Of a DNA stretch of 23,766 nucleotides, positions 635 to 23,766 are shown one piece after another. The notes under the pieces were generated by a model. It worked only from the letters and a program-made list of their open reading frames with translations. It made no database searches and had not been told where the DNA came from. The position numbers and the translations under genes are program-made. The DNA comes from Candidatus Woesearchaeota archaeon CG1_02_57_44. Lineage in GTDB: Archaea > Nanobdellota > Nanobdellia > Woesearchaeales > CG1-02-57-44. The first letter of the stretch is position 1. Every line of letters starts with the position of its first letter. Location of the stretch: positions 62,001-85,766 of the forward strand of contig MNWW01000067.1 in the NCBI GenBank assembly GCA_001871415.1. The letters run 5' to 3'.

Positions 635-1792
635 TCACTGCGGCAGGTCCCTGTTGGTCCAGGACATCATGGGCCTCATCGCGCGTACAGCATCATATGC
701 CTGTCCAGCAGGCAGGCACAGCTGCCTGAGCGCATCAGGAAGTTCTTCTTGGGGGATCCTCCCAGCGTAGTGGGTCGCTGCGGCATGGTTCTTGCAGAGC
801 CGCTCGCACGCCACGAACTGACGGGCGTATCCCGGATGCTCGGGCAATGACAGATTATGTGTCCAGACCGTCTCTTGCAGGGAATATCGATCCGTTGCTT
901 CCGTCTCCAGACCAAAGCCCGTGTCAGCGCTAATGAGCCGCACCAGCGGGTGCGTGAGCACCAGGGTATGGTCCAGGCGACGATCGCCCAGAGGCTCAAG
1001 ATAGGGTATCAGTCCTGCCGCGCCCGCAAGGCGTCCGGTCGGATTGTTTGTCACTGCCTCGGTCTCCAGGTAATGGATCGCCTGCGCCTGCAGGATGTGG
1101 CGGTCCACGGGGCTTGCGCCTACCCTCCTTGATGAATGTCGGCCAAAGGTCATGGGCACAGCGATCTCTGAGCCATTGACCAGCCGCTGACCGTCGGTGA
1201 GCATTTCCGGCGTCAGGGTGTAGCGCAGGACGGCCTTCACGCCCTCAGGATAGCCGGACTCAAAGCCCGTGCCCATGGGCATCTCGAACTCGACATATGC
1301 GAAATCATCGCCAGCGTAGACATCAATGAGGTCAGCGACCATGCCCATCGTCGCGTCATGAAGGTAGCTTCCAGAATCAGGATGATTGACCAGCGCGGTC
1401 AGGTGTCGTCGCACAGCGCCATGGTCATCCAGGATGGCGCCGGTACCTCCGATGAAGCGGTTGATCGAGCCGAGCCAGGCATCGCCAGCCCAGGTCGGCT
1501 TGAGGCGCATCAATGTCGTGCCCATCACCAATGTCTCTGCATCAGGGACATCGCGCACCTGCTGGCGCGGCATACCCCGTTGGAAATCCGCCCAATTGAA
1601 GTGCGAGTAGCATAGATCAACCAGGCCAAGCCCCTTGCCGAAGCGCTCGAAGCTTGCAGCATACTGCTGCAGGGACGCGCCGCGATGGGCTACGATGACC
1701 CTGCTGCCGGTATCGTTGTCTTCCAGCAGATGGAACCTCTCGGTCTCACCATCGACGACTGTGCTGAGTTCTCGTGCTTCGAATCGTGGCAT
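635..1792 (-). CDS. Divergent aldose 1-epimerase / galactose mutarotase-like protein
   Basis: 385 aa. Mutarotase-like order of motifs: 'IVAHRGASLQQY', 'YLHD' (cf. LHG), 'GYPEGVKAVLRYTL', 'PMTFGRHS' (cf. P..FG.H.Y), 'NPTG', 'LDHTL', 'QFVACE' (catalytic Glu region). Confidence 0.65.
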   Translation of the reverse strand: MPRFEARELSTVVDGETERFHLLEDNDTGSRVIVAHRGASLQQYAASFERFGKGLGLVDLCYSHFNWADFQRGMPRQQVRDVPDAETLVMGTTLMRLKPTWAGDAWLGSINRFIGGTGAILDDHGAVRRHLTALVNHPDSGSYLHDATMGMVADLIDVYAGDDFAYVEFEMPMGTGFESGYPEGVKAVLRYTLTPEMLTDGQRLVNGSEIAVPMTFGRHSSRRVGASPVDRHILQAQAIHYLETEAVTNNPTGRLAGAAGLIPYLEPLGDRRLDHTLVLTHPLVRLISADTGFGLETEATDRYSLQETVWTHNLSLPEHPGYARQFVACERLCKNHAAATHYAGRIPQEELPDALRQLCLPAGQAYDAVRAMRPMMSWTNRDLPQ

Positions 1793-1873
1793 GTATGCAT
1801 CACCCGGACTATGGTTTTTTGCCCTGGATGCGGCAGGGTATTTTATATTTTGTCAGTTCGCGCCAGGAATACT

Positions 1874-1880
1874 AATTTAA
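1874..1880 (+). promoter_or_regulatory. TATA-box candidate for the sigma-like gene
   Basis: AATTTAA lies 24-30 nt upstream of ATG 1904, the spacing expected for a leaderless archaeal transcript. A second AT-rich box lies at 1841-1851. Confidence 0.45.
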
Positions 1881-1903
1881 GAGAGCGGGCATTCCCGATG
1901 CTG

Positions 1904-3358
1904 ATGCCCGAGCCATCAGGTCGTCTCATCAATATCGCTTCTTTGACAAGCATGCTTGAGACCCATCCTTCTCCTGAACGGGCAGCCGACCCTTCGTATC
2001 AGGAAGCATTCGTCGCGCAGGTCATAGTCCCTCTGGCCGGGGGGATTTGCAAGAATGCTGAAATCGCGTCGCATCTTTTCGAAGATGCCATCGACTACGT
2101 GATTATCGAAGGTCTCGTCGCTCTTGGTCGATACGATTGCAGCAGGGACATGCCTGCCAGGACCTATGTCAGCACCCGTATGCATGGCGCGATTATCGAC
2201 TATAAGCGCAGCAATGGCACTATGCCCCGGCAGCAGCATAATGCGATAGACGGATATGCTGATCTTGCGTCTACCCATAATGGTGAGCTCACCCTTGAGG
2301 AGGTCGCATCACGGCTGGGCATGGAACCTGATGCGCTGGAGAGACGTCTGGCCATGTCTGGCACGAGCATGACCTATGATGTCTCCAATGAATATGGAGG
2401 GCGATTGGAGGAGCTGGAAGTTACTGGTGACGACCATGATTTCCAGGACCCCTTGGACACCGCGATTCAGGAGATTGAGGCATCCAGGGTCCGGGCTATG
2501 CTCGCTCAGTTGCCGGAGCGCGAAGGCCTTGTCCTCCAGCGATACTTCTTTGAGGATATGACGCTCAAGGAGATCGCCAGCACGCTTGATGTCTCTGAAT
2601 CCCGCGTTTGCCATCTGAAGAAGCAGGCATTGATACGATTGGGGGATCTCATGGGGGATGCTCTTTCCGATGCTGCTGGACCGGTATCTGCGCATACCAA
2701 TGGCAATGGTCTATGCACCGCAGAGCCCATAAGGTCGCACGCATATCCTGCGTCGAGGATGCCAAGGCTTCCGGTGCGTTGTCTGTCTGTCGATGCACCA
2801 CTGACCTACATCATTGCACACGTCCCTGATGGTTTTCTTCGGGAACACTTCGTCGCGCCTGTCGCCTATGGGCTCGCTGAAGCAGTAGGATATCCAGAGC
2901 TGGCAGAAGACATCACGCAAGTGACAGCAGCGATGATGGATCAGTATTCGCCCTGCCTGCATGGCACCTTGCCTTCGTATGTCCAGTCCAGGGCCCGGCA
3001 GGTCCTCCCGGCAATAGTGCCAGAGGGCGGTTTTCTGCTGGAGCCATTGCAGACAGATGAGAGGGAATTCAGTCCCGCATCCATGGACGCGCTGTTCCGT
3101 ATGTCGCTCGCACGGCTCAGCTGCGCATATGCGATGAATTCGATGGAAGGTCTTAGTCCCTATGCATCAATGGTCAGGGCCCTTATGGAGGCGGCGACGC
3201 CGACACAGCGGCTTGCGCTGATCCTGACTGATTGCATGGGCATGGATACTTCAGAAGCATCCACTATCATGGGTTGTCGTCAGGCAGTGACCGAGAAGAG
3301 CGTGCTACAGGCGTATGGACGGATGAATGAGGTCTTCAGGGTCAAGCGGGTTTCGTGA
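1904..3358 (+). CDS. Tandem sigma-70-like protein: FliA/WhiG-like module followed by a degenerate ECF-like module
   Basis: Region 2 'EGLVALGRYDCSRDMPARTYVSTRMHGAIIDYKR', region 3 'LTLEEVASRLGM', region 4 'LPEREGLVLQRYFFEDMTLKEIASTLDVSESRVCHLKKQALIRL'. Second module: 'LAEDITQ...LPSYVQSRAR' and 'TPTQRLALILTDCMGMDTSEASTIMGC'. Start placed at 1904 (alternative 1898); the ORF-track start 1685 overlaps the divergent gene. Confidence 0.8.
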   Translation: MPEPSGRLINIASLTSMLETHPSPERAADPSYQEAFVAQVIVPLAGGICKNAEIASHLFEDAIDYVIIEGLVALGRYDCSRDMPARTYVSTRMHGAIIDYKRSNGTMPRQQHNAIDGYADLASTHNGELTLEEVASRLGMEPDALERRLAMSGTSMTYDVSNEYGGRLEELEVTGDDHDFQDPLDTAIQEIEASRVRAMLAQLPEREGLVLQRYFFEDMTLKEIASTLDVSESRVCHLKKQALIRLGDLMGDALSDAAGPVSAHTNGNGLCTAEPIRSHAYPASRMPRLPVRCLSVDAPLTYIIAHVPDGFLREHFVAPVAYGLAEAVGYPELAEDITQVTAAMMDQYSPCLHGTLPSYVQSRARQVLPAIVPEGGFLLEPLQTDEREFSPASMDALFRMSLARLSCAYAMNSMEGLSPYASMVRALMEAATPTQRLALILTDCMGMDTSEASTIMGCRQAVTEKSVLQAYGRMNEVFRVKRVS

Positions 3359-3718
3359 CGCGCAGGGTGCGCATGGTATCGCTTGAGTCTTACAGCCTTC
3401 GGTCCAGAGGGCTCGCTCCTGGAGAGCGAATCTTATTAGACTCTGCGCTTTTTCGGTATTGATGTCCCTGGATTCAGAAGCATATCTGCATCTTGGCACA
3501 AGCAATAAACGCAAAGAGACTGCGCAAGACCATGCATCACTTCGTGCCCTGTTTGAATCCTCATGGATGTCCTTGCGGGAGTTTCCCTCTCGTTCCTTGG
3601 ATGAGATCCATGCTTGGCAATGGCGACGCTGCATCTTCTATGACAGTATTCATCTCTGCGTTGGCTGCCTTCTGGTCTCGAGGTGAGCCCATGGCAGGTG
3701 TTTTTTAGACTTAGCAAC

Positions 3719-5803
3719 TCACGCCCATTCATCCAGCACCGCCTGCCGCTCGGGCATGACGTATGCCTGCACGTCCTGCCTGCTGATGCCCACGGGCTGG
3801 AGGAGCACAAAGAGCGCTCTTGCCAGGCGCCTGCGGTAGTAGGCGATGTCCGGCGATCCCTTGTAGTCCTGAGGCAGCACGGGTCCTCGCGCGTCCATGA
3901 CATAGGCGATGGACTGGCCCGGCGCGACCTCCACGCCATGGCGCCGAAGCTGCGCGAGTATCGTGCGCTGCGGTATGTCGCGGCCATATGACCGCTTGCT
4001 TATGGTGACGCGGTGGCAGAGCAGCTGCGCGGGAACCGCTGGCAGATGCTGCACCGCCCTTCGCAGCATGCGCCCCAACGCAGGGAGCATGGCGCGCATC
4101 TCCTCTTCTGAGCGCGCCTTGGCCATGGCCTCGATGCAGCGGCGCTGGAAGAGCGCGACATAGGGCGGGCAGGAGCGCTGGCGCAGCTCGATGCCGCGCG
4201 CCTTGATTGCGCCGTGGCTGAAGACGCCGTAGTAGGCCGCGGGTAATGGCTTTCGCCTGTCATTGACGCTGGGAAGGAACACTATCCAGTCGAAGATGCC
4301 CTCAAAGCTCACTGGGATGCCTGCCTGCGCGTGGATGTCTTCGCACAGGCGGCGCACCTGCTCCCCGGTCATGCCGGGCCGGGTCACGTAGAGCGAATCG
4401 ATGATGCCGTGCAGCACGCGGAAGCCCTGCTGCTCGGCCAGCTTCGCGGCGTCGATGAGGGTCTCTCTCGCGAAGGCGCAGGTAGCCATGTGGGATGTCG
4501 CGAGCCCGAGCTTGAACTCACGAAAGCGCAGATAGCCGTAGCTTGACACGAGCACCCACTTGAGCCCCTGCGCGCGCTCCTTGTTCTCTGCCGTCGGCGT
4601 CGCCTTCAGCCGCATACGCCTGTCAAGGAATGCCTTGATGGCAAGGGGCACAAGGCCTTTTCGGTCCAATGCCATGCTGACAGCGATGCCGGGCGCCTGC
4701 TCCCGCACGACGCTGTCACTGAGCACGGTCTCGGCGCTGATGTTGCGGTTGTACATGAGCCAGGGGTACATGGAGGAGAAGTCTATCTCAGCGACGTCCC
4801 TATGGAATCCTGGCACCGGGTCGAACGTATGGCCTGTCCTGTCCGCCTTGAGCAGCTGGCTGAAGGTGAGCGGCCTGTCGATGGGCTTCTCCTTGTAGGG
4901 GATGAGGATTCCTCGCTGCGCCATCTCCTTGACGAGCGCTGCCTGGAAGGCGGCGCCTGCTGAGCGCGACGCCAGCTGCTGGAACCGCTGGGCGCTGAGA
5001 CAACAGAGCTCAAGGAGCGCATCAGGCGAGCACATGCTGCCCAGCATGGTCGAGGTGTCGACGAGGAACCTGCCGTTGAGACGCACGGCATAGTCCTGGT
5101 AGCGCACAGAGCCATACGACCAGAACGACCTGCCACCGCGGTAGCGCAGCGGGGCTTCGTGCCAACGGTGCAAGGGGCAGGCGATGCGAAGATGCGCGAG
5201 GCGCTCTGCAAGGAAAGGAAGCCTGGCAAAGCCGCGCTCCATGACGATGACATCTGGATCCTTGTTCTGGAACCATGACGCGAAGTCCTTGAGCAATGAG
5301 CGCTCCTCGCCCGTGAAGGTCTTCTGCCCTGCCGTGATGCGCTCCACCGTGTTCCTGCCTGTGACCGAGAGCTCTATGGCGCTCAGGACGGGTGGCGGAG
5401 CATCGGCTATGGTGTTGATGGTGAAGGGGTGGCTCCTGATATCACAGAGCGCGCCAGGATATACGCGGTGCTGGTAGAAGAACCTCTGCTCAGGCGTCAC
5501 ATCAGCGTCGAAGAGCGCGAGGCGATACCGGCTCTTGCGCTCTATCGCCCGGACGATCTGCTCGAAGCGGTCCAGTCTTGTCGTTATCCGCAGGATGTCA
5601 GTTGGGCCATGAAGCGGATGCTCGCGCGTCACCGTGGTGTAGACGATACGCAGGTCCTGCAGGAGCGCTCTTGCCTGTCGGTTGTCTTCTGCGTAGCATA
5701 CTGCCCTGCCGGGAGCGGTCATGCAACGCTCACGCTCAGGAGTCTTGAGCCAGAGCATGAGCTCGTCGCTGTGCCGATAGGCGTCCATGAGCCACGCGCG
5801 CAT
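3719..5803 (-). CDS. polB2: Family B DNA polymerase, PolB2 (Dpo2-like) group
   Basis: 694 aa. Motif A 'EIDFSSMYP', motif B 'KWVLVSSYGY', motif C 'HGIIDSLYV' (first Asp of YGDTDS substituted, typical of PolB2), 'KARGIELRQRSCP'. No recognisable exonuclease motifs. Start overlaps the upstream stop (TGATG). Confidence 0.92.
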   Translation of the reverse strand: MRAWLMDAYRHSDELMLWLKTPERERCMTAPGRAVCYAEDNRQARALLQDLRIVYTTVTREHPLHGPTDILRITTRLDRFEQIVRAIERKSRYRLALFDADVTPEQRFFYQHRVYPGALCDIRSHPFTINTIADAPPPVLSAIELSVTGRNTVERITAGQKTFTGEERSLLKDFASWFQNKDPDVIVMERGFARLPFLAERLAHLRIACPLHRWHEAPLRYRGGRSFWSYGSVRYQDYAVRLNGRFLVDTSTMLGSMCSPDALLELCCLSAQRFQQLASRSAGAAFQAALVKEMAQRGILIPYKEKPIDRPLTFSQLLKADRTGHTFDPVPGFHRDVAEIDFSSMYPWLMYNRNISAETVLSDSVVREQAPGIAVSMALDRKGLVPLAIKAFLDRRMRLKATPTAENKERAQGLKWVLVSSYGYLRFREFKLGLATSHMATCAFARETLIDAAKLAEQQGFRVLHGIIDSLYVTRPGMTGEQVRRLCEDIHAQAGIPVSFEGIFDWIVFLPSVNDRRKPLPAAYYGVFSHGAIKARGIELRQRSCPPYVALFQRRCIEAMAKARSEEEMRAMLPALGRMLRRAVQHLPAVPAQLLCHRVTISKRSYGRDIPQRTILAQLRRHGVEVAPGQSIAYVMDARGPVLPQDYKGSPDIAYYRRRLARALFVLLQPVGISRQDVQAYVMPERQAVLDEWA

Positions 5804-6129
5804 CAGGGTATTTCCTCGTCGAGCTGACGCTCGAGCTGAAGTGGCTGGCTGGCGCTGCTCTTGTCGCCTTCTCGTTGGCTGGCTGTTCTCCTCTGGCCGT
5901 GCTCCAGCGCCATGATGCGCTTCTCCTGCTCGAGCAGACAGGCGACCAGGATGAAGGCCCAGACGTGGATGCTCGCGGTGTAGGTGATGGAGCCATAATG
6001 GCGCAGCGGCTCTGCCATGACGCGGTCGAAGGCCTCGCGGTCCTCCGTGCGCAGCGCCTTCCTGAACGCGGAAAGCTCCGCGAGGTGGCGGTCGATGACC
6101 TGCCGGGCGCTGCTCACGGTGTGGCCCAA
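5803..6129 (-). CDS. Small PolB2-associated helical protein (arCOG07300-like)
   Basis: With a TTG start at 6129 (GGAGG upstream) it reads 'MGHTVSSARQ...FRKALRTEDREAFD...LLEQEKRI', matching the MGRT...FRRALR.ED...FD pattern of the small gene that accompanies polB2. Confidence 0.8.
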   Translation of the reverse strand: MGHTVSSARQVIDRHLAELSAFRKALRTEDREAFDRVMAEPLRHYGSITYTASIHVWAFILVACLLEQEKRIMALEHGQRRTASQREGDKSSASQPLQLERQLDEEIP

Positions 6130-6494
6130 AAGCGCCCCTCCGCCACAGCTATGTCGTGGTGCTTGCTCAGCTCGTCGAGCAGCTCTAGGCAATGCTCCTT
6201 GATGGCCTGATTCTCAGTATCATCACTATAATGGAAGAGGATGTCCGCGCGCGTGATGCCAATGGCCCTGAAGCCATAGGAGCGCGCGATGTCCGGCGCG
6301 GCCTTGAGGATGTCCCGGAAGGTGTAGATGAGGTCCACGCCCAGCACATAGGTCTTGTCGAGCTGCTCGTCGGTTATGCCCGGGAAGAGCGCGTGCGGGT
6401 CTGCGCAATTGGCTGCGTCGATGATGAGTCCTGGCGCGCGCTCCATGGCGTGGCGCATGGCTTCGTGGCTGGTCTTCACCCAGGTGATGGTCAT
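6114..6494 (-). CDS. Truncated, P-loop-less RecA/RadA-fold protein of polB2 operons
   Basis: 126 aa 'LIIDAANCADPHALF...EQLDKTYV...IYTFRDIL' resembles the RadA/Rad51 core downstream of Walker A; no GxxGxGK motif. The position upstream of the small gene and polB2 fits. ATTTAAT lies 23-29 nt upstream of ATG 6494 (alternative start 6668). Confidence 0.7.
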   Translation of the reverse strand: MTITWVKTSHEAMRHAMERAPGLIIDAANCADPHALFPGITDEQLDKTYVLGVDLIYTFRDILKAAPDIARSYGFRAIGITRADILFHYSDDTENQAIKEHCLELLDELSKHHDIAVAEGRFWATP

Positions 6495-6829
6495 GGGTGC
6501 CTGGTTGTATGGGGGGATTAAATGGTCGGCGGCCGGCTGGCTAGTGTCCAGTGGAAAACGCCCGGAGCAATGCTTCTTGCGCCGCAGCCCGCTGAGATAC
6601 GACGCAAGGCGTTTTCGCACATGAACGCTGCTCACGTGCGATTGATAGCGCATGAATCTTCTGCGCATGAGCCCTCTTGCACAGGTTCTCGCCGACGACT
6701 GCTGCTCGGCACAGCGCAGTGCACCGCGCTATGCATCATCGTGCACTTCTCCTGCGCAGCAACTCCTTGGCCTGTCCCTGCCTGACACATCAAAGCAAAG
6801 CCGCTGTCGCACGCAGGGGCCAGCAGCGA

Positions 6830-7546
6830 CTATGGTCGTTCCAGCACGTCCTTGCTGTCGTTCTTCGGGCTGTTGAGCAGCAATGATACAGGGGTCGGCC
6901 GCAGCGCGATGTCCCAATCCACAATCACAGCTCCCGTGTCCATGGCATGCTGCGTCAGCCATGCTGCTTCCTTGCCTCGATGGATGATGGCGGGCATGCG
7001 CTCGTGGTACGGGCGCATAGACGTGTTGGCAGGGCCGGTGATGATGCAGAATCCTGAATGGTCAGCGAGGGCTGCAAACCAGAGGAACCTGTCAGTCGTG
7101 AAGCAGTAAGGTATGCTGTCTTTCCATTCATAGAAGCCGTCAGCAGGGATGAGGCACGGGCGCAGCGCGCGGAAGAATGGCTTGTCCTGCAGGGTCTCAG
7201 ATCTGGCGTTGATGATAGGCCGCTTGGCCCAGTCCGGGCGCAGGCCGAAATTGAGGGAGGTGAACCGATGCGGCGGGCCGGGCTTGCGGACAGCGGTCTG
7301 GACGGCTATGGCAGGAGCGTCGCCTGTCTTGGTCGCGGTCTTGGACGCCGCGCTTGTCACCTTTGCTGCTGGCTGCGCCCTCGCCTTGTCGGTCGCATCT
7401 GCTAAGCTTTCATCACCTGCCAGCACGGTCCAGCTCGGCTGCGTGGGCGCGATGTTGTAGCGCGGCACGAAGGTGTCCGGGAGAATCAGGCCCAATCGCT
7501 CCAGCTCCTCCTCGGGTATGCTGATGAGCGAGAATCTTCCGCACAT
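6830..7546 (-). CDS. SOS response-associated peptidase (SRAP; HMCES/YedK family abasic-site-protecting protein)
   Basis: N-terminal 'MCGRF' (Cys2), 'PRYNIAPTQ', 'INARSET', 'CLIPADGFYEW', 'HERMPAII'. Confidence 0.93.
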   Translation of the reverse strand: MCGRFSLISIPEEELERLGLILPDTFVPRYNIAPTQPSWTVLAGDESLADATDKARAQPAAKVTSAASKTATKTGDAPAIAVQTAVRKPGPPHRFTSLNFGLRPDWAKRPIINARSETLQDKPFFRALRPCLIPADGFYEWKDSIPYCFTTDRFLWFAALADHSGFCIITGPANTSMRPYHERMPAIIHRGKEAAWLTQHAMDTGAVIVDWDIALRPTPVSLLLNSPKNDSKDVLERP

Positions 7547-7601
7547 GGTTTGGTGGGGGGAACTGGACTTGATAATTGTTTTGGGTCATAGAACTGGCCG
7601 G

Positions 7602-8048
7602 TCATCCGCTGTCTGCCAGCAGCTGGGCCTTTTTCCTGCAGGCATCGCGTCCCTCTTCGTTCATGCTGTCCATCAGGGCGTCCATTGTCGCCAGATATGA
7701 CACAGCGGTGTCAATCAACGATGCCGTATCCATGGCTGTCGCTGTGATATCCGCATAGTATTGTCTTGAGATGCGCTGCTCTCTGGCTTCTTCCAATGGT
7801 GCAGGGTCGATGCTGAACACCTGCTGCAGGATTATCGTAGTCTTCCTGTGGCTCTTGCATCGCAGGCCGATGCTCCAGAACAGTGCTGTCGTCTTGTGGT
7901 ACATGGCATAATACGCGAGAGCGATGGCTTCGGCGAAGAGCTCATGCTCCAGCAGCAGTTTTGCGGCAGCGAGTGAACCAGAGGCCTTCTTGCTGTACGC
8001 TTGTCGCATATGAGGATTTGGTCTATTCAGTCGTATGCTTGCGGCCAT
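7602..8048 (-). CDS. HEPN domain protein (toxin of HEPN/MNT pair), RX4Y type
   Basis: 'AYYAMYH...G....SH' HEPN pattern and 'R-ISRQ-Y'. Overlaps the end of the upstream MNT gene. Confidence 0.85.
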   Translation of the reverse strand: MAASIRLNRPNPHMRQAYSKKASGSLAAAKLLLEHELFAEAIALAYYAMYHKTTALFWSIGLRCKSHRKTTIILQQVFSIDPAPLEEAREQRISRQYYADITATAMDTASLIDTAVSYLATMDALMDSMNEEGRDACRKKAQLLADSG

Positions 8049-8581
8049 CCCAACACCTGGTAGTATCGTGTCGGGTTCTGCAGGATGATATGCTCCTTAT
8101 TGATTTCCCGCGAAAAAGCGGAGCCTATCTGAAGCGCTCCGGACTGTATGCTCAGCTTGGCGGAATACCTCTGGAGGTCCTGCCGAATGCTGGTGTTCGC
8201 GGTCTCCACATAGAGGTCGATGTCGCTTGTCTTGGTCTCATCGCCTCTCGCGTAGCTTCCGAACAGGACCACAAGCTCTCCGGCTGTGCATTGCTCTGTG
8301 TGCTTGAGCAGCTGGCGCATCAGAGGTCGCTGGATGAGCTTGAGCAGCTTGTAGTGTTCGGTCATGAGCAATGCCTGATGTGCGTCCGGCGTCGCCTTCA
8401 GGAAATACTTCTTGTTGCGGCCTTCACGCTTGAAATCAAGGATGCTCTGCTGCTCCAGGTGCCGAAGTATCCGCAGGGCTGTCGCGACAGGGATTCCAGT
8501 TGCCAGCGCGGCCTGGCGCACATGCAGCGGGCTGATGCGCAGGGCCTCGATGAGCTCCATATCGTTTCGTATTTGGAACAT
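8027..8581 (-). CDS. Winged-HTH + minimal nucleotidyltransferase (MNT) antitoxin
   Basis: N-terminal HTH 'HVRQAALATGIPVATALRILRHLEQQSILDFKREGRNKKY'; 'LFGSYARGDETKTSDIDLYV' matches GSX10DXD. ATAAATA box at 8605-8611. Confidence 0.9.
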   Translation of the reverse strand: MFQIRNDMELIEALRISPLHVRQAALATGIPVATALRILRHLEQQSILDFKREGRNKKYFLKATPDAHQALLMTEHYKLLKLIQRPLMRQLLKHTEQCTAGELVVLFGSYARGDETKTSDIDLYVETANTSIRQDLQRYSAKLSIQSGALQIGSAFSREINKEHIILQNPTRYYQVLGWPQAYD

Positions 8582-10250: not shown

Positions 10251-10528
10251 GGGTTGTTATCCTATCTTTCTGCTGCATGACGGCACTGACGCATACCTGG
10301 TGCCTCTTATCGCTTCTGTGAGAAAAGCCGGAAGGGATGCGGGGTGGGGCGGATTATTTCCAGGAGGGATTATTATAGGTGGGGTGGACTCCCTTGGGGG
10401 CATGGCACGGCGAAAGAGAGCAGCTGGTACTCGCGCGTCTTCTGGTATGAGTTGGAGGAAAGTCCTGTTTGAGATAGATGAATATGCGCCGAACAGGCTC
10501 TGTCCTGAATCTCCGTAAAATAGATTTA

Positions 10529-10735
10529 CCCCTGCGGCCCGTAAGGGCTACAGGGGGGTGGAGGCGAATCTCCACCATGGATGAGACAAACAAGGAGACT
10601 GATAAAGTTAGGCGTTTGGTGAAGCGTTGCGGCTTGCCGAAGTGGCGGCACCGGTTCGGTCCGAAGACATATACGCTCTGGGAGCATGTGCAAAGTCTGT
10701 TGCTCAAAGACCTGCTAAACCTGTCATTCAGGCGG
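10529..10735 (+). mobile_element. IS remnant: 5' end of an IS5-like (DDE) transposase with structured leader
   Basis: From ATG 10577: 'MDETNKETDKVRRLVKRCGLPKWRHRFGPKTYTLWEHVQSLLLKDLLNLSFRR' resembles the N-terminus of archaeal IS5-like transposases (LP.W.H.FGPK.Y...LSYRR). It is truncated where the duplicated nucleotidyltransferase sequence begins. Two hairpins precede the ATG. Confidence 0.6.
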
Positions 10736-10926
10736 ACACGAGCATTGATTGGAGCGCACTCGTCGAGAAGGCGGCGATGCAGGCTGCTGACAATGAGTGG
10801 TTCCTCATTGACCTTGAGGCGACATTGCATGATCTCAAGAAGATGGCGTTCATCCCCAACAAGCACTTCAGGCGCATCTACGAGGCGCAAGAGCGGTTGC
10901 ACGGGGGAGCTTCAAGAAAAAACTAG
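10730..10926 (+). pseudogene. 3' remnant of the nucleotidyltransferase gene
   Basis: 'ADTSIDWSALVEKAAMQAADNEWFLIDLEATLHDLKKMAFIPNKHFRRIYEAQERLHGG' is nearly identical to the C-terminus of 11579..12244; the N-terminal part is absent. Confidence 0.9.
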
Positions 10927-10981
10927 CCCCGCTTGGATTCGAACCGAGTTCCCCCGCTCCAAAGGCAGGGATGATTGGCCG
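10924..10981 (-). pseudogene. Partial tRNA-Gln copy (D-loop to discriminator), att-like
   Basis: CGGCCAATCATCCCTGCCTTTGGAGCGGGGGAACTCGGTTCGAATCCAAGCGGGGCTA has 3 mismatches to the intact gene and lacks the 5' acceptor strand. Confidence 0.9.
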
Positions 10982-11090
10982 GGACTGGCCGCGATGTACT
11001 TGGATCGCACGTCATTGCTGCCAGTTCGCCGCCACAATGGAGCGTCGGCTACCAGCCTTTTGTCTCAACGGATAACAATATCATAGAAAT

Positions 11091-11100
11091 GTTTATATAT
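11091..11100 (+). promoter_or_regulatory. TATA box of the HTH/nucleotidyltransferase operon
   Basis: GTTTATATAT lies 21-30 nt upstream of ATG 11121, preceded by a purine-rich BRE-like AGAAAT. Confidence 0.65.
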
Positions 11101-11120
11101 TACTTCATATAGATAATATC

Positions 11121-11582
11121 ATGCGAGCTGGAAAATACACAGTAGAGACGTTTGCGAAAGAAGCGGGCCTGACCAGAGCGTCAGCGCTCAACAGGCTCTC
11201 GCGGCTGAAGCGCGAAGGATACGTGACCGTCAGCGGCGGCGGAGCGCAAAAGCGCATCTACACCCTGCACAACACGCCACAGCAACCGAGCAACGGATTC
11301 TATACGCTGGTCAATAAGTATAGCCCGGAGAAGCTTGTGCCGCGCTTCAAGCATCATGTCTGCGGTAACTACTCGGTCGAGCATGCCATCATCGATGGGA
11401 TTGGCATAGGCGATGCGCGAACGCTCGCCGCGACACAGCACCTGTTCCGGCACGTGACGGACTGGAAGCGGCTCTTCACCCTAGCCGGGAAGCACGGGCG
11501 CGAACAGGACGTAAGAGCGCTCTACGAGAAGGCGCGCGCCACCACACGAGTGAAGCGCATGCCCGAGAGGTATAGGAAATGA
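11121..11582 (+). CDS. Winged-HTH protein, AbiEi-like antitoxin candidate
   Basis: 'YTVETFAKEAGLTRASALNRLSRLKREGYV...GG..KRIY' is wHTH-like; 'YSVEHAIIDGI' resembles the AbiEi C-terminal (S/T).E.A.ID motif. ATGA overlap with the next gene. Confidence 0.7.
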   Translation: MRAGKYTVETFAKEAGLTRASALNRLSRLKREGYVTVSGGGAQKRIYTLHNTPQQPSNGFYTLVNKYSPEKLVPRFKHHVCGNYSVEHAIIDGIGIGDARTLAATQHLFRHVTDWKRLFTLAGKHGREQDVRALYEKARATTRVKRMPERYRK

Positions 11583-12244
11583 TCAACACGGAAGACCAGG
11601 AACAGCTCTTCAGGCTCATCGCGGAGTATCTTGAGCGCGACCTTGTCTGCGTCGCCATCGGCGGCACTGCCATGATGTTCATGGGCTACAAGAACGCCAC
11701 CAAGGACATCGATCTGGTGTTTGATTCCAAACAAGAACGGGATGTCTTCATCCGTGCGATCAAGGAGCTCGGCTATGCTGATAAGGCATTGTCCGGCATC
11801 TATGACGCGAAGCGAACGGCTCATCCAGGAAAGCCGCTCATGTTCACGCGCGGAGAAGAGCGCTTCGATCTGTTCGTGCACGACATCTTCGGCTACATGC
11901 TCAGCACGAAGGATGCGTTCACTGAGCGAAGAGATTACCTCGGGAAAAGCGAGTTTATCGTCCATCTGCCGACAAAGGAAGACCTTATCCTGCTCAAGGC
12001 GATCACGCGGCGGGAGAAAGACCATGAGGACATAGCGGCCATCATCAAGGCGGACACGAGCATTGACTGGAGCGCACTCGTCGAGAAAGCGGCGATGCAG
12101 GCCGCCCATAATGAGTGGTTCCTCATTGACCTTGAGGCGACTTTGCAGGATCTCAAGAAGATGGCGTTCATCCCCAACAAGCACTTCAGGCGCATCTACG
12201 AGGCGCAAGAGCGGTTGCACGGGGGATCTTCGGGAAAAAACTAG
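11579..12244 (+). CDS. Pol-beta-superfamily nucleotidyltransferase (AbiEii / DUF6036-like toxin candidate)
   Basis: 'VAIGGTAM...ATKDIDLV', 'ERFDLF', 'EDLILLKAITRREKDHEDI'. Confidence 0.85.
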   Translation: MINTEDQEQLFRLIAEYLERDLVCVAIGGTAMMFMGYKNATKDIDLVFDSKQERDVFIRAIKELGYADKALSGIYDAKRTAHPGKPLMFTRGEERFDLFVHDIFGYMLSTKDAFTERRDYLGKSEFIVHLPTKEDLILLKAITRREKDHEDIAAIIKADTSIDWSALVEKAAMQAAHNEWFLIDLEATLQDLKKMAFIPNKHFRRIYEAQERLHGGSSGKN

Positions 12245-12299
12245 CCCCGCTCGGATTCGAACCGAGGTCCCCTGCTCCAAAGGCAGGGATGATTGGCCG
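12048..12299 (+). repeat. 252-bp direct repeat, copy B
   Basis: See copy A at 10730-10981. Confidence 0.95.
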
Positions 12300-17612: not shown

Positions 17613-18662
17613 CTAGGTCTTCCTCCATTGATGAAGTGACGCCTCATGGCGCTTGAGCGAGATGACGATGATCACAGACAATGCCAGGAGGCATCCCAGC
17701 AGACCTGTCGCAGGCAGCAGTTGCCTGCGGTCAGGAGCGGCGAGCGTCCCGGGTATTCCTGGCGGCCCATCAGCAGTCCCCGCATGCACGCCGACGCGCT
17801 CCTCCGGGGGCTGTCCGGCAAAACGCTGTTCGGGTGCAAAGGAAACCACAATATCTCCAAGGTAGCCGCCCTGACGTGAGTCAATGGTGGCGTAGATGAC
17901 CTTTTGCGCATCGGTCGTTGTGAATGAGACAAGACCCGTATCCAGGGCGATGCGGGAAGCATCTGGTCCCTCGGGCCTGACGCTCAGGCGGAATTCCTGG
18001 TGGCGCGGATTGCTGATGATGATGGGCACAGTCTCTGACGACGCGTCACCGGCGGTGTTCACCGTCACATTGACGGGCTCCACCGTGAACTCCAGGAGTG
18101 TGGCGCTGGAGACGCGGAGGCGCTCAAGCAGCACGGGCCTGTCGCTTTGCGCAGTAATGCGGTATTCGCCAGCAGGCAGGTTGGCGACGCAGGTCTCGAT
18201 GCACCCCGCGCGCAGCGCGTCCAGCTCCCCGTGATAGATGAGATATGACCTCGTGTCCGGGTCCTGACCATCGGCGCCTGCAGTATCCCCTGCGCTGCGT
18301 ATCGCACGAATGCTGACGCTGAGATTGGCCGGGCCCACAGCGTCAAGCGTGATCATGCGCGCGTGGGTGAGGTTCAGCGATAGCTCGGCCGCACCATCAA
18401 CCTGCACGCCTAGGGGTACGATGTCGCTTCGCAGCACGCTCAATACGGCATTGCCGCTCCACTGCGCACCAAGCCATGCGACGCCTGCCAGCAGGATGAG
18501 TGATATGAGCAGGAGGGCAACGCTCCTGCCACCGGAGGGCTGCTTCTGGTGCGCCCGCTGGCGGCCCTGCTCTTCGGCGACCGCCGCGAGCAGATGATCC
18601 ACGCGCGGGTCCTGCGGGCTGGCGTAGAGCAGCTCGCGACGCAGCTGATCAAGGCGGTTCAT
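17613..18662 (-). CDS. Membrane protein with N- and C-terminal TM helices and extracellular beta domains
   Basis: 349 aa. TM 'VALLLISLILLAGVAWLGA' followed by 'SGNAV', 'CIETC', an Ig-like segment and a C-terminal TM. ATGA overlap with the upstream HTH gene. Confidence 0.75.
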   Translation of the reverse strand: MNRLDQLRRELLYASPQDPRVDHLLAAVAEEQGRQRAHQKQPSGGRSVALLLISLILLAGVAWLGAQWSGNAVLSVLRSDIVPLGVQVDGAAELSLNLTHARMITLDAVGPANLSVSIRAIRSAGDTAGADGQDPDTRSYLIYHGELDALRAGCIETCVANLPAGEYRITAQSDRPVLLERLRVSSATLLEFTVEPVNVTVNTAGDASSETVPIIISNPRHQEFRLSVRPEGPDASRIALDTGLVSFTTTDAQKVIYATIDSRQGGYLGDIVVSFAPEQRFAGQPPEERVGVHAGTADGPPGIPGTLAAPDRRQLLPATGLLGCLLALSVIIVISLKRHEASLHQWRKT

Positions 18663-19129
18663 TTGCGCCGCCCCCTCTGGACAGAACTCCAGATGACGCG
18701 CGCGTCACGGCCGAGGATCCTGGCGATGTCGGCATAGCGAAGGCCGGTGTCATGCAGATGGATGGCGAGCGCTTCCAGTGCGCCGCGATCATCGGAGAAT
18801 ATGGCAAGCGGGATGCAGGGAGATTCCCTGGACGTGATGGGCCCTTCATGCTTGCTTTTCGCATTGCGATAGGACAGCCAGACTGACTTCGCAGAGCGCT
18901 TGGTGAGGCGCGCGATGTCAGCGAACCGCATGCCGCGCTGCTCGTGGAGGAACTTGACGACGGCCTCGATGACGCCGAGATCAGATGGGAAGATGTCCTT
19001 GGGGATCAGGTGCTGCGGCTCAGCATCCAGATCCTGTATCGCCCGGAGCAGTTCTTCTTTACTTACCCCTGCCTCGCGGAGCTGACGTAAGAGGTCCAGT
19101 GCCTTCTCTTTCCTTGGTCTGGCAGGCAT
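18659..19129 (-). CDS. Tandem HTH (sigma region-4-like) regulator
   Basis: Two repeats of IP..IF...(L/R)G.(I/L)EA....L...G.R(F/Y)ADIAR...R....(V/I)W. Paralog of 20887..21078. Confidence 0.85.
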   Translation of the reverse strand: MPARPRKEKALDLLRQLREAGVSKEELLRAIQDLDAEPQHLIPKDIFPSDLGVIEAVVKFLHEQRGMRFADIARLTKRSAKSVWLSYRNAKSKHEGPITSRESPCIPLAIFSDDRGALEALAIHLHDTGLRYADIARILGRDARVIWSSVQRGRRK

Positions 19130-19609: not shown

Positions 19610-20890
19610 TCACTTCTTCTTCCTGAACCAGAAGAGCCACATGACGTTGACCAGCACCAGGATGATGACCGCAGCGAACATCAGCGTGTCCCGGTTGAGC
19701 GGACTTGCCTCTCCGGCCACGGCATTGGCTGTTATATCCTGGCTGATAGGAGTTATACTGTCGATGTTGACCGCCAGCTCCAATGGCTGCTCGGTGGTCT
19801 TGTCCGCGTAATGCAGCACGATGACCGCATCGTAGTTGCCCACAGGGATGCCATTGGTGTCCCAGAAGGCAGTCAAGGTGGCTTGCCCCAACGCAGGCAC
19901 ATTCACGCTCGCGCTCCTGGTGGTGATGACCTCATGACCCTGCTTGTCGCGGATGACCAGGTCTGCGTAGAGGCCTTCTATATCATCAGACCATTCGTTC
20001 TTGACGGTTATGAGCATCTTGGCTATCTCGCCTATGCGGAACTTTCCAACATCGAAGCTCGCCACATTTATCTTGAGCGTGCCGACATTGAAGTCACGCT
20101 CCACGCGGCTCATCTCATTGTCATAACGCACCATCGCGATCGCGTGATACGGGCCGGGATTGACTTTCGCGTCCCAGACAGAGGTCACTTTGCCCTGGCC
20201 TGCCAACGGCAAAGCGATGCTATCGGTGTTCAGGCGGGCCAGCTCCTGGTTGGTGCTGGAGAGCACGCGTATCTCGGCAGCGACGCTCTCCACCGGCTCC
20301 TTGCCATGGTTGCTCAATGACACGGTAAAGACGACCTTGCCATTGGCTTCCTGCACGAACATGACCGGCTCGACGTACTTGCCTGGATACGGCACATTGA
20401 CCACGACCTTGCTGATGACCGCAGCAGTGGCTGAAACCGTAGTCTGGTCGTCCTCTCCATAGTTCCTGGGCAGTTGCAATGCCACAATCTCTCCTTCATG
20501 CTGGCCCGGAGTCGAGAGCTCTGGCAGGCGCACTTTTACCCTCACGGTTTTTTCTGCCTCTCCTGGCGCAAAATCCACCACTGGCTCGAGCACGGTTATC
20601 GCTTTCTCCAGTTCTCCCTGCGCGTAGATGATGATGCGCGTCGGCTCTGCCTCGCGATTGACCAGGCGCACAACCAGGTCCTGCTCTCCACCTTGCGTAT
20701 AATCAATATTGAACTTAGCCGGACTGATGCCGATGGCGAGCGCAGGGGAAAGCAGCAGGAGCGCCATCAGCATCACCAATGGCAGCAGCCGCTTGACCAA
20801 GGCATCCGCCCGCCCCGTCCTGCCCATCGCGACAGCCGCACACTGCTCACGCTGGCGCGATATCCTGCACCGCGTCAGCATCGCTGTCAT
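19610..20890 (-). CDS. Membrane-anchored multi-Ig-domain surface protein
   Basis: Signal peptide ending ALA-IGISP; 'PGQHEGEI', 'VPYPGKY', 'SNHGKE'; C-terminal TM followed by RKKK. The true start may be 20827. Confidence 0.85.
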   Translation of the reverse strand: MTAMLTRCRISRQREQCAAVAMGRTGRADALVKRLLPLVMLMALLLLSPALAIGISPAKFNIDYTQGGEQDLVVRLVNREAEPTRIIIYAQGELEKAITVLEPVVDFAPGEAEKTVRVKVRLPELSTPGQHEGEIVALQLPRNYGEDDQTTVSATAAVISKVVVNVPYPGKYVEPVMFVQEANGKVVFTVSLSNHGKEPVESVAAEIRVLSSTNQELARLNTDSIALPLAGQGKVTSVWDAKVNPGPYHAIAMVRYDNEMSRVERDFNVGTLKINVASFDVGKFRIGEIAKMLITVKNEWSDDIEGLYADLVIRDKQGHEVITTRSASVNVPALGQATLTAFWDTNGIPVGNYDAVIVLHYADKTTEQPLELAVNIDSITPISQDITANAVAGEASPLNRDTLMFAAVIILVLVNVMWLFWFRKKK

Positions 20891-21078
20891 TGCTGCACCC
20901 TCTTCTTCTGCGCCCGATTGTAGCAGGTCCAGATGGTCCTGTCATCGCGGTTGAGCAACGCTGCTATCTCGTGATACGTCATACCCCGCTCGACCTTGAG
21001 GTAGACCACCATCGCCTCGAGCACCGAGAGGTCCCTCTGGCGGAAGATGCCGCTTGGGATCAGGACAGTTCCTTCCAT
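20887..21078 (-). CDS. Small HTH (sigma region-4-like) protein
   Basis: 63 aa 'IPSGIFRQRDLSVLEAMVVYLKVERGMTYHEIAALLNRDDRTIWTCYNRAQKK'. TGATG overlap with the giant gene. Confidence 0.85.
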   Translation of the reverse strand: MEGTVLIPSGIFRQRDLSVLEAMVVYLKVERGMTYHEIAALLNRDDRTIWTCYNRAQKKRVQQ

Positions 21079-23766
21079 CAGGTTTGCCTCGCCGCTATCA
21101 CGATGGTGCTCTGCCGTACTGCCGGGGGCTCCTCCCACGGCACCGTCACCTGCATCTCGATCTGTGCGCGGTTGTTGCCGTCGCTCCAGTTGAGCGCCTT
21201 GATGACCAGCACTTCCTGGTCAGACATATTGGTGAAGAGCATGGCGGATCCTGACACATTGTAGCTCACCACGTCAGAGACATTGCCGGACATAAAACGG
21301 AAGTAGGATGTGTTGAGCGGCTGCGTCGCCCACAGATCAGAGGTCGCTCTGACCTTGACGTCGCTTATGACATTGCCTGTGTTCTGCACCGTGAACGGGG
21401 CCGGACTGTCGGCTGTCGTGTTCTTCTCCTTGCCCACTGCCAAGAGACCAAAGTTCACGCCCGTTATGGTAAGATTTACTTCAAGCAGAGAGGCGACGGA
21501 GAAGTTCCAGAGTGGTGTGACCGTGGTGTTGGTGCCATCGTATGCTTCCACGGTCCAATTGTACCAGGTGTCCACTTCCAGCCGGTCTGCTATGGAGCTG
21601 TTGGTGACATTGACGATGTCCTCCAGGACCACATTCGGATAGGTCTGGTGCGTGATGTTGAGCGTGAAATTGATGCTCTCATTGTCCGGGTCATAGGCGC
21701 TCCAGTTGAAGTTTGGCTGGCGCGAGGTCAGGGTGTTGTTTTCGTTCTGCGGCCAGAGCAATGCGACGACCGGCGGGCTGTTCTGGATGGTCGCGTTGGC
21801 GGACATGTTGGCGGCGATCACACTGCCGTCGCTCAGGGTGAGGTTGCAGGACCAGATCTGTCCTTTGGTCGTGACATTGGCGGGAATCGAGCCATTGCCG
21901 TTGTTGTAGAGCGCTCCAAGCACGATGCCGCTGTAGCTGAAGTCATAGTCGGTCACGCGCGCGCTGTTGTTGAACCACGTGATGTTGACCGCTACTGGAT
22001 CACTGTCCGCGTCGGAGATGTTGAATGAGCAATTGAGCTGGTCTATCCTGGTCGGAGCTGCAGGAAGGATAGCCAGCGACTGCGCCACCGGCGCGCTGTT
22101 GCTCGTGACCGTGATATTGTAGGCGCTCGAGTTGCGCAACTGGCCCAGCTCATCGAAGCAGCCCACACTCCAGTTGTACTGCTGATCCGCCAGCCAGGTG
22201 GTGAACGTCTGGTTCACGTCTTTGGCGATGGTCGCGTTGGTCTGGTTGAGGATGCCGTTGACAAAGAGCGAGCAGTTGGTGACCGTGCTGTTGTCGGATA
22301 CATTATAGACGAACTCCACGGTGCTGTTCGTCCTCTGGGTGTTGTTGGCAGGAGAGACCAGATGGATGATTGGCGCGGTCGCGTCCACAGTGAAATTAGC
22401 AGCGACGGACATGTTCTGGTCGTTCTTGTCCAACAGGATGGTCGTGCTCAGCTGTTGCAATGCCAGGAACACGCGATACAGGCCATCGCCGGGAAGGTCG
22501 CTCGCGTTGTACTGTGGCCAAAGCCATGCGAGACTGAGATTGCTCGAGGTGTTAAGCTGGATGTGTGGCAGGGGACTGACAAGCGTGTCCTGCGGCAGCC
22601 ATAGCGAGCCGGTCCACTGCTCCGTGCGCAACAGCAGGTAGAATGACGTATTCGTCAGGTTCGTCGAGAGGAACGACGCGTTCTGCACCGTGAGATTCGA
22701 GAGATTGATTGCCTGCGTGCCATTATACAGCCCGAGGTCGGTCGCCAGGCCGATGGTGACCTTCGCGCTGAGATTGAATGAGCCCGTCTCTGTGTCATTG
22801 AGATTATTGCTGCTATCATTCGCGTAGATGGTGAACGGATACGTTCCGTTGTACCAGAAGCTGACGTTAGCGAACCATACATCCGACACATTGTACATGC
22901 TGAAATTTGCTTCCGCGTCGTCGGTCTGCATGACGCCGACCCATGCGCGGTCCACTGCTGTATCATCGGTCACGGTCGCCTGGATGGTCACGTTGACATC
23001 ATACCCCTGCAGGACGGGGGATACACTGACTGCCGTGACGCTGGGTGGTCCTGCGTCCTGATAGAAGCTGATGTTGCGCGCTGTGCCATTCTGGAAGTTT
23101 CCGACGATATCATAGCAGCCGACCGTCCAGTTGTGCTGCCCTGCTGCCGGCGCATACGTGAAGGTCTGCGCGACGCCCTCGCTGACGCTGCTATTGGTGC
23201 CCTGGATGCTGCCGTCTATCCAGAGCGAGCAGTTGGTGATGGCGCCCGTATCCGTGACATTATACTGGAAGGTCACCGGCGTGCTGTTCACCTGCGTGTC
23301 GTCGTAGGGAGATTCAAGGCTGACGGTCGGGGCGGTGGTGTCCAGCTCAATGGTCCGCGTCAGGGTATCATTGTTGTTACCAAGCGTGTCATTCGCGCTG
23401 GCATTGATGTAGTAGGTTCCATCCGGCAGGCCAGTCCAGTTGATGAGGAACGGGCTGCTGTCGCTGTTGGACTCATTCACCAGACCGGTCGTATTATAGA
23501 TCCTGATAGTGATGTTCGCGAGGTTGTCATCAGTAGCGCTGACATTGATATCGATATAGCTTCTGCTGTAGTTACCCGTGGATGGCGTGGCGTTATGGAA
23601 GAGGATGGCTGGTTTTGTCGTGTCAGGTTGAACGATTTGCACCGTGCTGGTCCCCGTGGTGTTGGACAGGCCGTTCCTGTCGATGGTGGATGCCGAGAAG
23701 TTGTACGTTCCGTAGGCGAGTCCGGTGATATTGGCCCGGAGGAAGGCCTGATCAGAGCTATTGGCA
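21078..23766 (-). CDS. Giant Ig-repeat surface glycoprotein (5' end outside window) with a C-terminal subunit-like domain
   Basis: The frame stays open to the window end (ANSSDQAFLRANITGLAYGTYNF...). Repeated D(T/A)T.P...L.SP...F.YNV.D....NCSL...NW.VGC.D..G domains. Well over 40 N-x-S/T sequons by manual count. Confidence 0.9.
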   Translation of the reverse strand, partial: ANSSDQAFLRANITGLAYGTYNFSASTIDRNGLSNTTGTSTVQIVQPDTTKPAILFHNATPSTGNYSRSYIDINVSATDDNLANITIRIYNTTGLVNESNSDSSPFLINWTGLPDGTYYINASANDTLGNNNDTLTRTIELDTTAPTVSLESPYDDTQVNSTPVTFQYNVTDTGAITNCSLWIDGSIQGTNSSVSEGVAQTFTYAPAAGQHNWTVGCYDIVGNFQNGTARNISFYQDAGPPSVTAVSVSPVLQGYDVNVTIQATVTDDTAVDRAWVGVMQTDDAEANFSMYNVSDVWFANVSFWYNGTYPFTIYANDSSNNLNDTETGSFNLSAKVTIGLATDLGLYNGTQAINLSNLTVQNASFLSTNLTNTSFYLLLRTEQWTGSLWLPQDTLVSPLPHIQLNTSSNLSLAWLWPQYNASDLPGDGLYRVFLALQQLSTTILLDKNDQNMSVAANFTVDATAPIIHLVSPANNTQRTNSTVEFVYNVSDNSTVTNCSLFVNGILNQTNATIAKDVNQTFTTWLADQQYNWSVGCFDELGQLRNSSAYNITVTSNSAPVAQSLAILPAAPTRIDQLNCSFNISDADSDPVAVNITWFNNSARVTDYDFSYSGIVLGALYNNGNGSIPANVTTKGQIWSCNLTLSDGSVIAANMSANATIQNSPPVVALLWPQNENNTLTSRQPNFNWSAYDPDNESINFTLNITHQTYPNVVLEDIVNVTNSSIADRLEVDTWYNWTVEAYDGTNTTVTPLWNFSVASLLEVNLTITGVNFGLLAVGKEKNTTADSPAPFTVQNTGNVISDVKVRATSDLWATQPLNTSYFRFMSGNVSDVVSYNVSGSAMLFTNMSDQEVLVIKALNWSDGNNRAQIEMQVTVPWEEPPAVRQSTIVIAARQT

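Follow-up and report, generated by a model that had tools for sequence, protein, structure and literature searches.

Two bacterial sigma-70-like modules in a single archaeal protein, a candidate domesticated regulator

The locus and its archaeal setting

The window is the whole stretch of DNA that was analysed, 23,766 nucleotides of one contig of Candidatus Woesearchaeota archaeon CG1_02_57_44. It contains an intact gene whose product resembles bacterial sigma-70 factors twice over, first in a FliA-like module and then in a more divergent one predicted to be ECF-like. The gene, its promoter element and its two neighbours are as follows.

1904..3358, + strand: two-module sigma-like gene, 484 aa (486 aa from the ATG at 1898)
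1876..1881, + strand: TATA-like box TTTAAG, recognized by sequence, 22 nt before the ATG at 1904, the genome-wide spacing peak
635..1792, - strand: divergent neighbour, aldose-1-epimerase-like (PF01263, E 9e-6, just below cut-off)
3719..5803, - strand: convergent neighbour and linkage marker, family B DNA polymerase (Pfam and NCBIfam profiles)

A preliminary description of this DNA had proposed that 1904..3358 encodes one protein, preceded by a TATA-like box and lacking an obvious ribosome-binding site, and each of these points stands. The frame runs unbroken from 1898 or 1904 through the stop codon ending at 3358 (484 codons from 1904). Across 7192 in-frame ATGs the distance from TATA box to ATG peaks at 22 nt genome-wide (106 cases, against 1-19 outside 22-25 nt), and the placement of TTTAAG at exactly this spacing therefore supports both the 1904 start and a leaderless message without a ribosome-binding site. 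Residues are numbered below from the ATG at 1898 (P0001, 486 aa); for the 1904 start, 2 should be subtracted. The GC3 of the gene is 0.60, within the lowest 7% of 613 long ORFs, and the probability that its C-terminal half would be open by chance is about 1e-4. The sole variant protein seen carries two conservative changes. The protein sequence contains neither a hydrophobic N-terminal signal nor a membrane stretch.

Archaeal RNA polymerase starts transcription with TBP and TFB and does not use sigma factors, as the preliminary description noted. To regard a sigma gene in an archaeon as without precedent would nevertheless be outdated: of 196 Woesearchaeota genomes, 39% are reported to carry sigma-70 genes (Castelle et al. 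2021, PMC8204110), in a study that excluded mis-binning, found no anti-sigmas and left function open.

In the genome (1.53 Mb, 82% complete, 0.1% contaminated), TBP, TFB and PCNA are present and the RNA polymerase subunits found are exclusively archaeal, of the split type; neither rpoB nor rpoC of bacterial type scored above cut-off in the 82% that it represents. Among 24 ORFs scanned on the contig are archaeal AlaRS, RecJ, RNase HII and riboflavin synthase, all over cut-off, and the contig also bears a tRNA-Pro with an intron. These observations speak against the gene being an artefact of assembly or binning, in which a bacterial gene has been joined to archaeal DNA, as do the contigs of several sequencing runs. 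Run X1, which may be the source sample, yields one 9587-nt contig over 939-10525; a contig of run X4 over 1717-3605 shows two differences, both outside the gene, with none listed in the coding sequence; and a contig of run X3 (2812-8154) bridges the gene to the polymerase gene. Four runs were compared, which may stem from one sampling campaign. The linkage to the archaeal part, which the preliminary description had singled out for checking, is thus secure, and a chimera is effectively excluded. As an artefact of this kind or, alternatively, a second module that is not sigma-derived, the locus would be explained in a way that we consider very improbable; the evidence on the second module is given below. 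Seven loci related to the polymerase gene comprise four labelled Woesearchaeota or Nanoarchaeia, two Methanosarcinales and one Acidobacteriota; relatives of the neighbouring genes and features of the genome point to the Woesearchaeota.

Several features of the surrounding DNA deserve mention in their own right. Base clusters at 837-844, 1012-1083 and 3456-3457, all outside the gene, differ from the contigs of other runs and may be assembly errors or strain differences. At 3719-7546 the gene for the family B polymerase shares its direction with an SRAP gene and two small ORFs that lack annotation, an arrangement which we take to resemble a damage-inducible PolB2-type cassette, and a HEPN and nucleotidyltransferase pair follows at 7602-8581. 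An HTH and DUF6036 pair occupies 10354-12280; its 3' end is partly repeated at ~10350-10900, where several runs' contigs break. Two small sigma4-like helix-turn-helix ORFs (18659-19129 and 20887-21138) sit inside a predicted surface-protein cluster, and upstream on the same contig there is a 1135-aa ORF (L004:9599-13006) with no NCBIfam or Pfam match.

The FliA-like module and what it retains

The first module spans about residues 30-252 and is followed by a linker.

1985..2230, + strand: sigma2 of module 1 (residues 30-111), regions 2.1/2.2 eroded and 2.3/2.4 partly kept (Pfam PF04542, E 8e-8)
2285..2416, + strand: sigma3-like stretch of module 1 (residues 130-173; Pfam PF04539, E 0.01, below cut-off)
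2501..2653, + strand: sigma4 helix-turn-helix of module 1 (residues 202-252), its best-kept part (PF04545, E 5e-17)
2654..2780, + strand: linker of ~42 residues, no family match, mostly coil in a low-confidence full-length model; a similar linker occurs in the paralogue

Sigma70_r2 at residues 49-107 and Sigma70_r4 at 202-248 are above the Pfam cut-offs and TIGR02937 scores 78 bits against a cut-off of 42.9, so that module 1 qualifies as a member of the sigma-70 superfamily. The more specific proposal of a FliA/WhiG-like module with regions 2, 3 and 4 is upheld for regions 2 and 4, whereas region 3 and the family model score below cut-off. Sigma70_r3 reaches 16.5 bits (cut-off 25.3), with a spacing between sigma2 and sigma4 that fits, and the best NCBIfam model, TIGR02479 FliA/WhiG, gives 108.5 bits (cut-off 189.6), followed by NF005413 at 102.4 bits (cut-off 201). 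E. coli FliA is the best solved relative (PDB search, E 1.5e-20). The best 149 of 6075 representative matches, excluding the protein's own fragment, cover module 1 only and are 26-37% identical to it; a search for a near-identical bacterial gene therefore came back empty, and module 1 is no near copy of any known one. In quick trees, which single out no donor and no grouping of the two paralogues, the branch leading to the gene is very long (3.2, against a median of ~1), as is that of the paralogue.

Conservation was judged column by column against 120 FliA-like representatives of 200-300 aa, drawn from the 149 matches and picked by similarity to this protein. Module 1 keeps 43/81 conserved positions overall: 2/9 in region 2.1, 2/6 in 2.2, 4/6 in 2.3, 7/12 in 2.4, 6/16 in region 3 and its linker, and 22/32 in region 4. 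The erosion is uneven, with 4/15 positions remaining in 2.1-2.2 against 11/18 in 2.3-2.4 and more than either in region 4, whose good conservation had been noted from a motif at residues 222-237 (window 2561-2608). For region 2.2 the mean kept fraction is 0.94 across the 120 representatives and only 1/120 is as low as module 1, although a one-residue insertion offers an alternative alignment. Region 2.2 is the main sigma contact with the beta-prime coiled coil (PMC4598750).

Promoter contacts were mapped through alignments to PDB FliA structures onto those reported for Pseudomonas (PMC12784957) and in an E. coli preprint (10.1101/2020.01.02.893370). Kept are D66, Y76, R80, D87, R90, R97, H100 and S224 (Pseudomonas numbering) and K208 and R220 (E. 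coli); changed are S72, R82, D93, R101, R104, Q228 and probably R40. The losses include the melting and template-strand contacts R82 (now His), D93, R101 and R104, and the -35 base reader Q228, also replaced by His, in a grouping of kept and lost contacts that was drawn after the data were seen. At 10/19 assessable DNA contacts the residue is identical, no larger a proportion than across the conserved columns as a whole. What stands out clearly is therefore the loss in 2.1-2.2, with no special retention of DNA contacts. Module 1 is also strikingly acidic, with a net charge of -18 that is equalled in 2/120 FliA-like proteins.

The surface that FliA proteins present to FlgM, an anti-sigma factor, has changed too. 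Arg stands at residue 215, which corresponds to Pseudomonas L204; 92% of the representatives have Leu there, and in Pseudomonas the L204R substitution lifts the Kd for FlgM from 2.2 to 422 nM, a ~190-fold weakening (PMC12784957). At 82% completeness the genome has no match to FlgM or to a zf-HC2 anti-sigma, and neither bacterial core polymerase nor sigma-28 promoters were found in it: sigma-28-like sites number 33, against ~60-85 in 8 shuffles of the genome, and are thus not enriched.

The latter bears on a candidate role in control of the archaellum by a FliA-like factor, which was rejected. By eye, the DNA upstream of the archaellin matches shows TATA-like boxes, and the top four sigma-28-like sites all lie on contigs other than theirs. 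The genome has eleven archaellin matches (C26:4326-18540, C54, C57), nine of them on C26; the match on C57 has six stop codons.

The preliminary description had also suggested an effector or decoy acting on the RNA polymerase or anti-sigma factor of a bacterial partner. In such a reading the protein would be delivered to the partner, and the anti-sigma factors titrated would be FlgM for module 1 and an ECF anti-sigma for module 2. The findings above disfavour this proposal and we regard it as unlikely. With 2/6 positions kept in region 2.2, His in place of R82, Arg at the FlgM-critical position and no signal or membrane stretch, the protein seems poorly equipped for such a task, and no bacterial host is known for the organism. 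In its favour, the 82% complete genome offers no anti-sigma of its own to bind, other genomes of the order retain near-canonical RpoD-like genes, and the second module, described next, has likenesses to sigma mimics and to anti-sigma-bound structures.

The predicted ECF-like module

The second module comprises two predicted domains.

2825..3016, + strand: sigma2-like helical bundle of module 2 (residues 310-373), weakly supported; two-domain structural matches to CnrH, BldN, SigW and SigK, no HMM match
3146..3355, + strand: ECF-type sigma4-like domain of module 2 (residues 417-486), Z ~10 and rmsd ~2 Å over 60-69 residues; recognition-helix residues replaced

Its only HMM signal is a sub-threshold PhyR_sigma-like match at residues 433-472 (E 1.5e-5; PF22233, 25.2 bits against 27), and region 2 has no match with HMMs. 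The PhyR sigma-mimic models PF22233 and NF006623 are the best family matches of the module and could be taken to point to an effector; they are under cut-off and cover the sigma4 part only. Against the 120 FliA-like proteins a profile of module 2 scores 17.5, within the range of shuffles (4/60 higher), and a profile of its first half is borderline at 20.4 (2/60 higher). Scored against FliA domains, both halves exceed shuffles, whereas the first half of the paralogue does not.

A fold model (pLDDT 51.6, pTM 0.42) was built on nothing but the C-modules of the two paralogues; a single-sequence fold of the whole protein was uninformative (pLDDT 39.5). Of the twelve top Foldseek hits of the module 2 model, ten are named as ECF sigma factors and the other two come from mycobacterial initiation complexes (chain F), all at E-values of 0.04 or worse. 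In a wide fold search over 48161 chains the top 21 rows are sigma-70 family entries. The predicted sigma4 domain superposes on ECF sigma4 structures with Z 9-10.5 and rmsd 1.6-2.7 Å, while two-domain matches of the model have an rmsd of 6-9 Å (CnrH: Z 10.8, rmsd 7.5 Å), and the top matches are compact, anti-sigma-bound ECF structures. The ESM Atlas places module 2 in an ECF-type cluster at 0.96, and the corresponding part of the paralogue at 0.92.

Predicted structure thus makes the sigma4 fold of module 2 well supported and sigma2 the likely identity of its first half. A module that is not sigma-derived, the second form of the artefact reading, would be consistent with the lack of an over-threshold sequence match, the low-confidence model and its Foldseek values, and with Z scores near 10, which are modest for helical folds; the N-terminal half alone also resembles viral coat proteins at Z 6-7. 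The degenerate ECF-like regions 2 and 4 of the preliminary description accordingly divide into a well-supported sigma4 half and a weak sigma2 half, less robust than had been implied, with a sigma fold predicted for the module nonetheless. Its recognition helix reads VTEKSVLQAY where RpoE has TIKSRVSRAR, and the basic residues of SigC and RpoE are missing; to judge from these residues, module 2 has lost those that read DNA.

A 25-nt in-frame repeat (1999-2023 and 2839-2863) prompted the idea that module 2 is an internal duplicate of module 1. This was rejected, since the alignment diagonal does not outscore codon-shuffled controls and module 2 resembles module 1 no more than it resembles bacterial FliA.

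A paralogue and a narrow distribution

The fusion exists twice in this genome.

23341..24657 of contig C8: paralogue with both modules, 438 aa, 20% identical over residues 136-481

Each module of the paralogue scores above 1000/1000 shuffles against its counterpart. Its frame is open, it has the identical TATA box at the same 22-nt spacing, and it adjoins tRNA endonuclease and TBP genes, a setting that again speaks against an artefact. It keeps a different set of residues, more of region 2.2 and less of 2.3 and region 4. Since both modules are present in copies that have diverged so far, the fusion is likely older than an ancient duplication, and two open, TATA-led, two-module genes at ~20% identity argue for long retention.

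Other sigma-like genes in the genome are of different build. C40:45303-45908 (minus strand) encodes a stand-alone ECF-like protein of 201 aa with regions 2 and 4 and no relative in a protein search, and C49:4341-5717 and 6407-7795 are tandem paralogues, immediately after the PCNA gene, that combine a weak N-terminal sigma2-like region with a repetitive Trp/Pro-rich domain without Pfam match.

Matches to TIGR02479 at E 0.001 or better occur in 140/401 genomes of the order, a tally that takes in eight genomes marked unpublished, five of whose loci are among the order loci surveyed. Most of the top loci are RpoD-like with N-terminal extensions. On G039:C3 four RpoD-like frames lie in tandem, the locus end truncating one of them. 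In the largest, as in the gene on G028:C3, regions 2 and 4.2 look near-canonical and the branches are short (0.11-0.58), in contrast to the present gene; these are better candidates for acting on bacterial polymerase. FliA-like genes with N-terminal extensions of ~170-190 residues and a kept region 2.2 occur on G241:C96, G371:C44, G206:C10 and G272:C41; the smaller quick tree unites all four (support 88), the larger one 3/4.

The tandem architecture was rightly called unusual, being confined to one species with two copies. Among the order's other 400 genomes neither module 2 nor the fusion turned up, and relatives of module 2 were found neither in a search of 5.8 billion proteins, nor in scans of metagenome and genome contigs, nor among the best 150 of 6075 representative matches, all of these searches being insensitive below about 25% identity. 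A second sigma module is likewise absent from 21 longer matches and four FliA-like frames of the order, and from the surveyed order loci, for which the models used miss module 2 itself. The search intended to seed an ECF profile retrieved only its query, and the lone match to module 2 in an order genome (E 0.0016, a short unrelated frame) was judged spurious.

These comparisons also weigh on the notion of an accessory factor of archaeal polymerase, in which sigma2 would have been retuned to the clamp coiled coil, the site of TFE and Spt4/5, so as to couple a DNA site to the enzyme. The docking of bacterial sigma2 on the beta-prime coiled coil (PMC4598750) and of TFE on the archaeal clamp coiled coil (PMC7289017) lends the idea some appeal, and the change in region 2.2 could be adaptation instead of loss. 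However, the clamp region (in this genome, Rpo1N at C26:27102-27551, minus strand) is 81-89% identical in 28/29 other order genomes with a match and gives no sign of co-change, a bacterial-type 2.2 is retained (4-6/6 positions) by the FliA-like genes found elsewhere in the order, and region 2.2 of the paralogue differs again. We hold such a factor to be improbable.

A possible regulator inside the archaeon

Our tentative preference is for a domesticated DNA-binding regulator that works inside the archaeon independently of polymerase, a role that would fit the residue pattern. We favour it because a helix-turn-helix, which is a DNA-binding element, is the best-kept part of the protein, and because a host promoter precedes the gene. 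Several features together make action as a sigma factor or a FlgM decoy unlikely: no bacterial core enzyme was found, the helix that would bind it is eroded, the surface for FlgM is spoiled, and an export signal is lacking. In the course of events that we envisage, both parts were acquired from bacteria, fused and then duplicated in the lineage, and the gene would be transcribed by the TBP/TFB machinery of the host. DNA binding by module 1 would rely on the sigma4 helix-turn-helix, with the helix of region 2.4 assisting; the site would differ from the sigma-28 consensus, and module 1 would repress or modulate TATA promoters. By analogy with PhyR, module 2 may be a protein-contact or inhibitory unit.

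The main rival is less probable, though to be taken seriously. It holds that a captured gene is under relaxed selection, still readable and constrained by folding, slowly eroding and with little or no regulatory role. Acidic charge, the lack of sigma-28-site enrichment, differing losses in the two paralogues and their long branches keep slow decay close; every functional surface is partly eroded, module 2 has no relative in the 400 order genomes or the protein searches, and GC3 is low. It is harder to reconcile with two copies at 20% identity that are both still open and carry a TATA box at precisely the leaderless distance, with the improbably open C-terminal half, and with a variant protein whose changes are so few and conservative.

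A more ambitious version of the regulator appears to us a long shot. The protein would belong to a sigma-derived family of archaeal transcription factors with a built-in switch, in which the FliA-like module recognizes a bipartite operator and works on TBP/TFB promoters, possibly in contact with the archaeal polymerase clamp, and is gated by the DNA-blind ECF-like module, which serves as an internal mimic of a sigma factor. If true, this would be the first shown function for DPANN sigma genes.

About a third of the genomes of the order carry bacterial-type sigma genes, which is puzzling since their polymerase initiates with TBP and TFB. The present protein is a useful test case, as it yields distinct predictions: it should bind neither bacterial polymerase nor FlgM, and DNA binding is possible for module 1 but not expected of module 2. 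Should these predictions prove true, one fate of captured sigma genes would be conversion to a stand-alone regulator. Rarity, with one species and two copies, limits the general weight of the case, and the near-canonical RpoD-like genes elsewhere in the order are better subjects for the question of a bacterial partner.

Comparison with known systems

That archaea of this kind can carry single sigma genes was known before; the double-module fusion is a new, rare form. In the literature searched, which mostly did not cover subscription journals, there is no description of a tandem FliA-ECF protein or a fused sigma, and Castelle et al. (2021) is the sole relevant result on sigma function in DPANN; the excerpts of PMC7289017 and 10.64898/2026.10.08.757525 do not cover the tandem case. 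The closest archaeal counterpart is the DPANN sigma-70 family fam00359, with a median length of 280 and mostly annotated as primary sigma (PMC8204110). Both are sigma-70 genes native to Woesearchaeota-like contigs alongside TBP and TFB, with no anti-sigma found, but here a FliA-like module is followed by an ECF-like one, a tandem form that the excerpts of PMC8204110 do not mention for fam00359.

Among bacterial proteins, module 1 shares with FliA/sigma-28 (group 3; PDB 6pmi, 1rp3, 9wsm) the order sigma2-sigma3-sigma4 (with a sub-threshold match for sigma3), the best PDB match and the residues R80, D87, R90, R97 and S224. It departs from them in scoring below the TIGR02479 cut-off, in its eroded 2.2, in changes at R82, D93, R104 and Q228 and Arg for L204, and in belonging to a genome without detected core polymerase, FlgM or sigma-28 promoters. 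Module 2 resembles ECF group 4 (CnrH 4cxf, RpoE 5uxx, SigC 2o8x) in its predicted sigma2 and sigma4 without sigma3, and ECF proteins top both fold searches. Unlike these, it is only 8-25% identical to them, lacks an over-threshold HMM, has its recognition-helix residues replaced and stands behind another sigma module. The parallel with PhyR (PF22233, NF006623) is that of a protein of two domains, one of them sigma-like, which apparently does not act as a sigma factor. In PhyR's case, however, a receiver domain and an anti-sigma partner belong to the system, whereas here there is no receiver domain match, PF22233 stays under cut-off and no anti-sigma partner was identified in searches for FlgM and zf-HC2 anti-sigmas.
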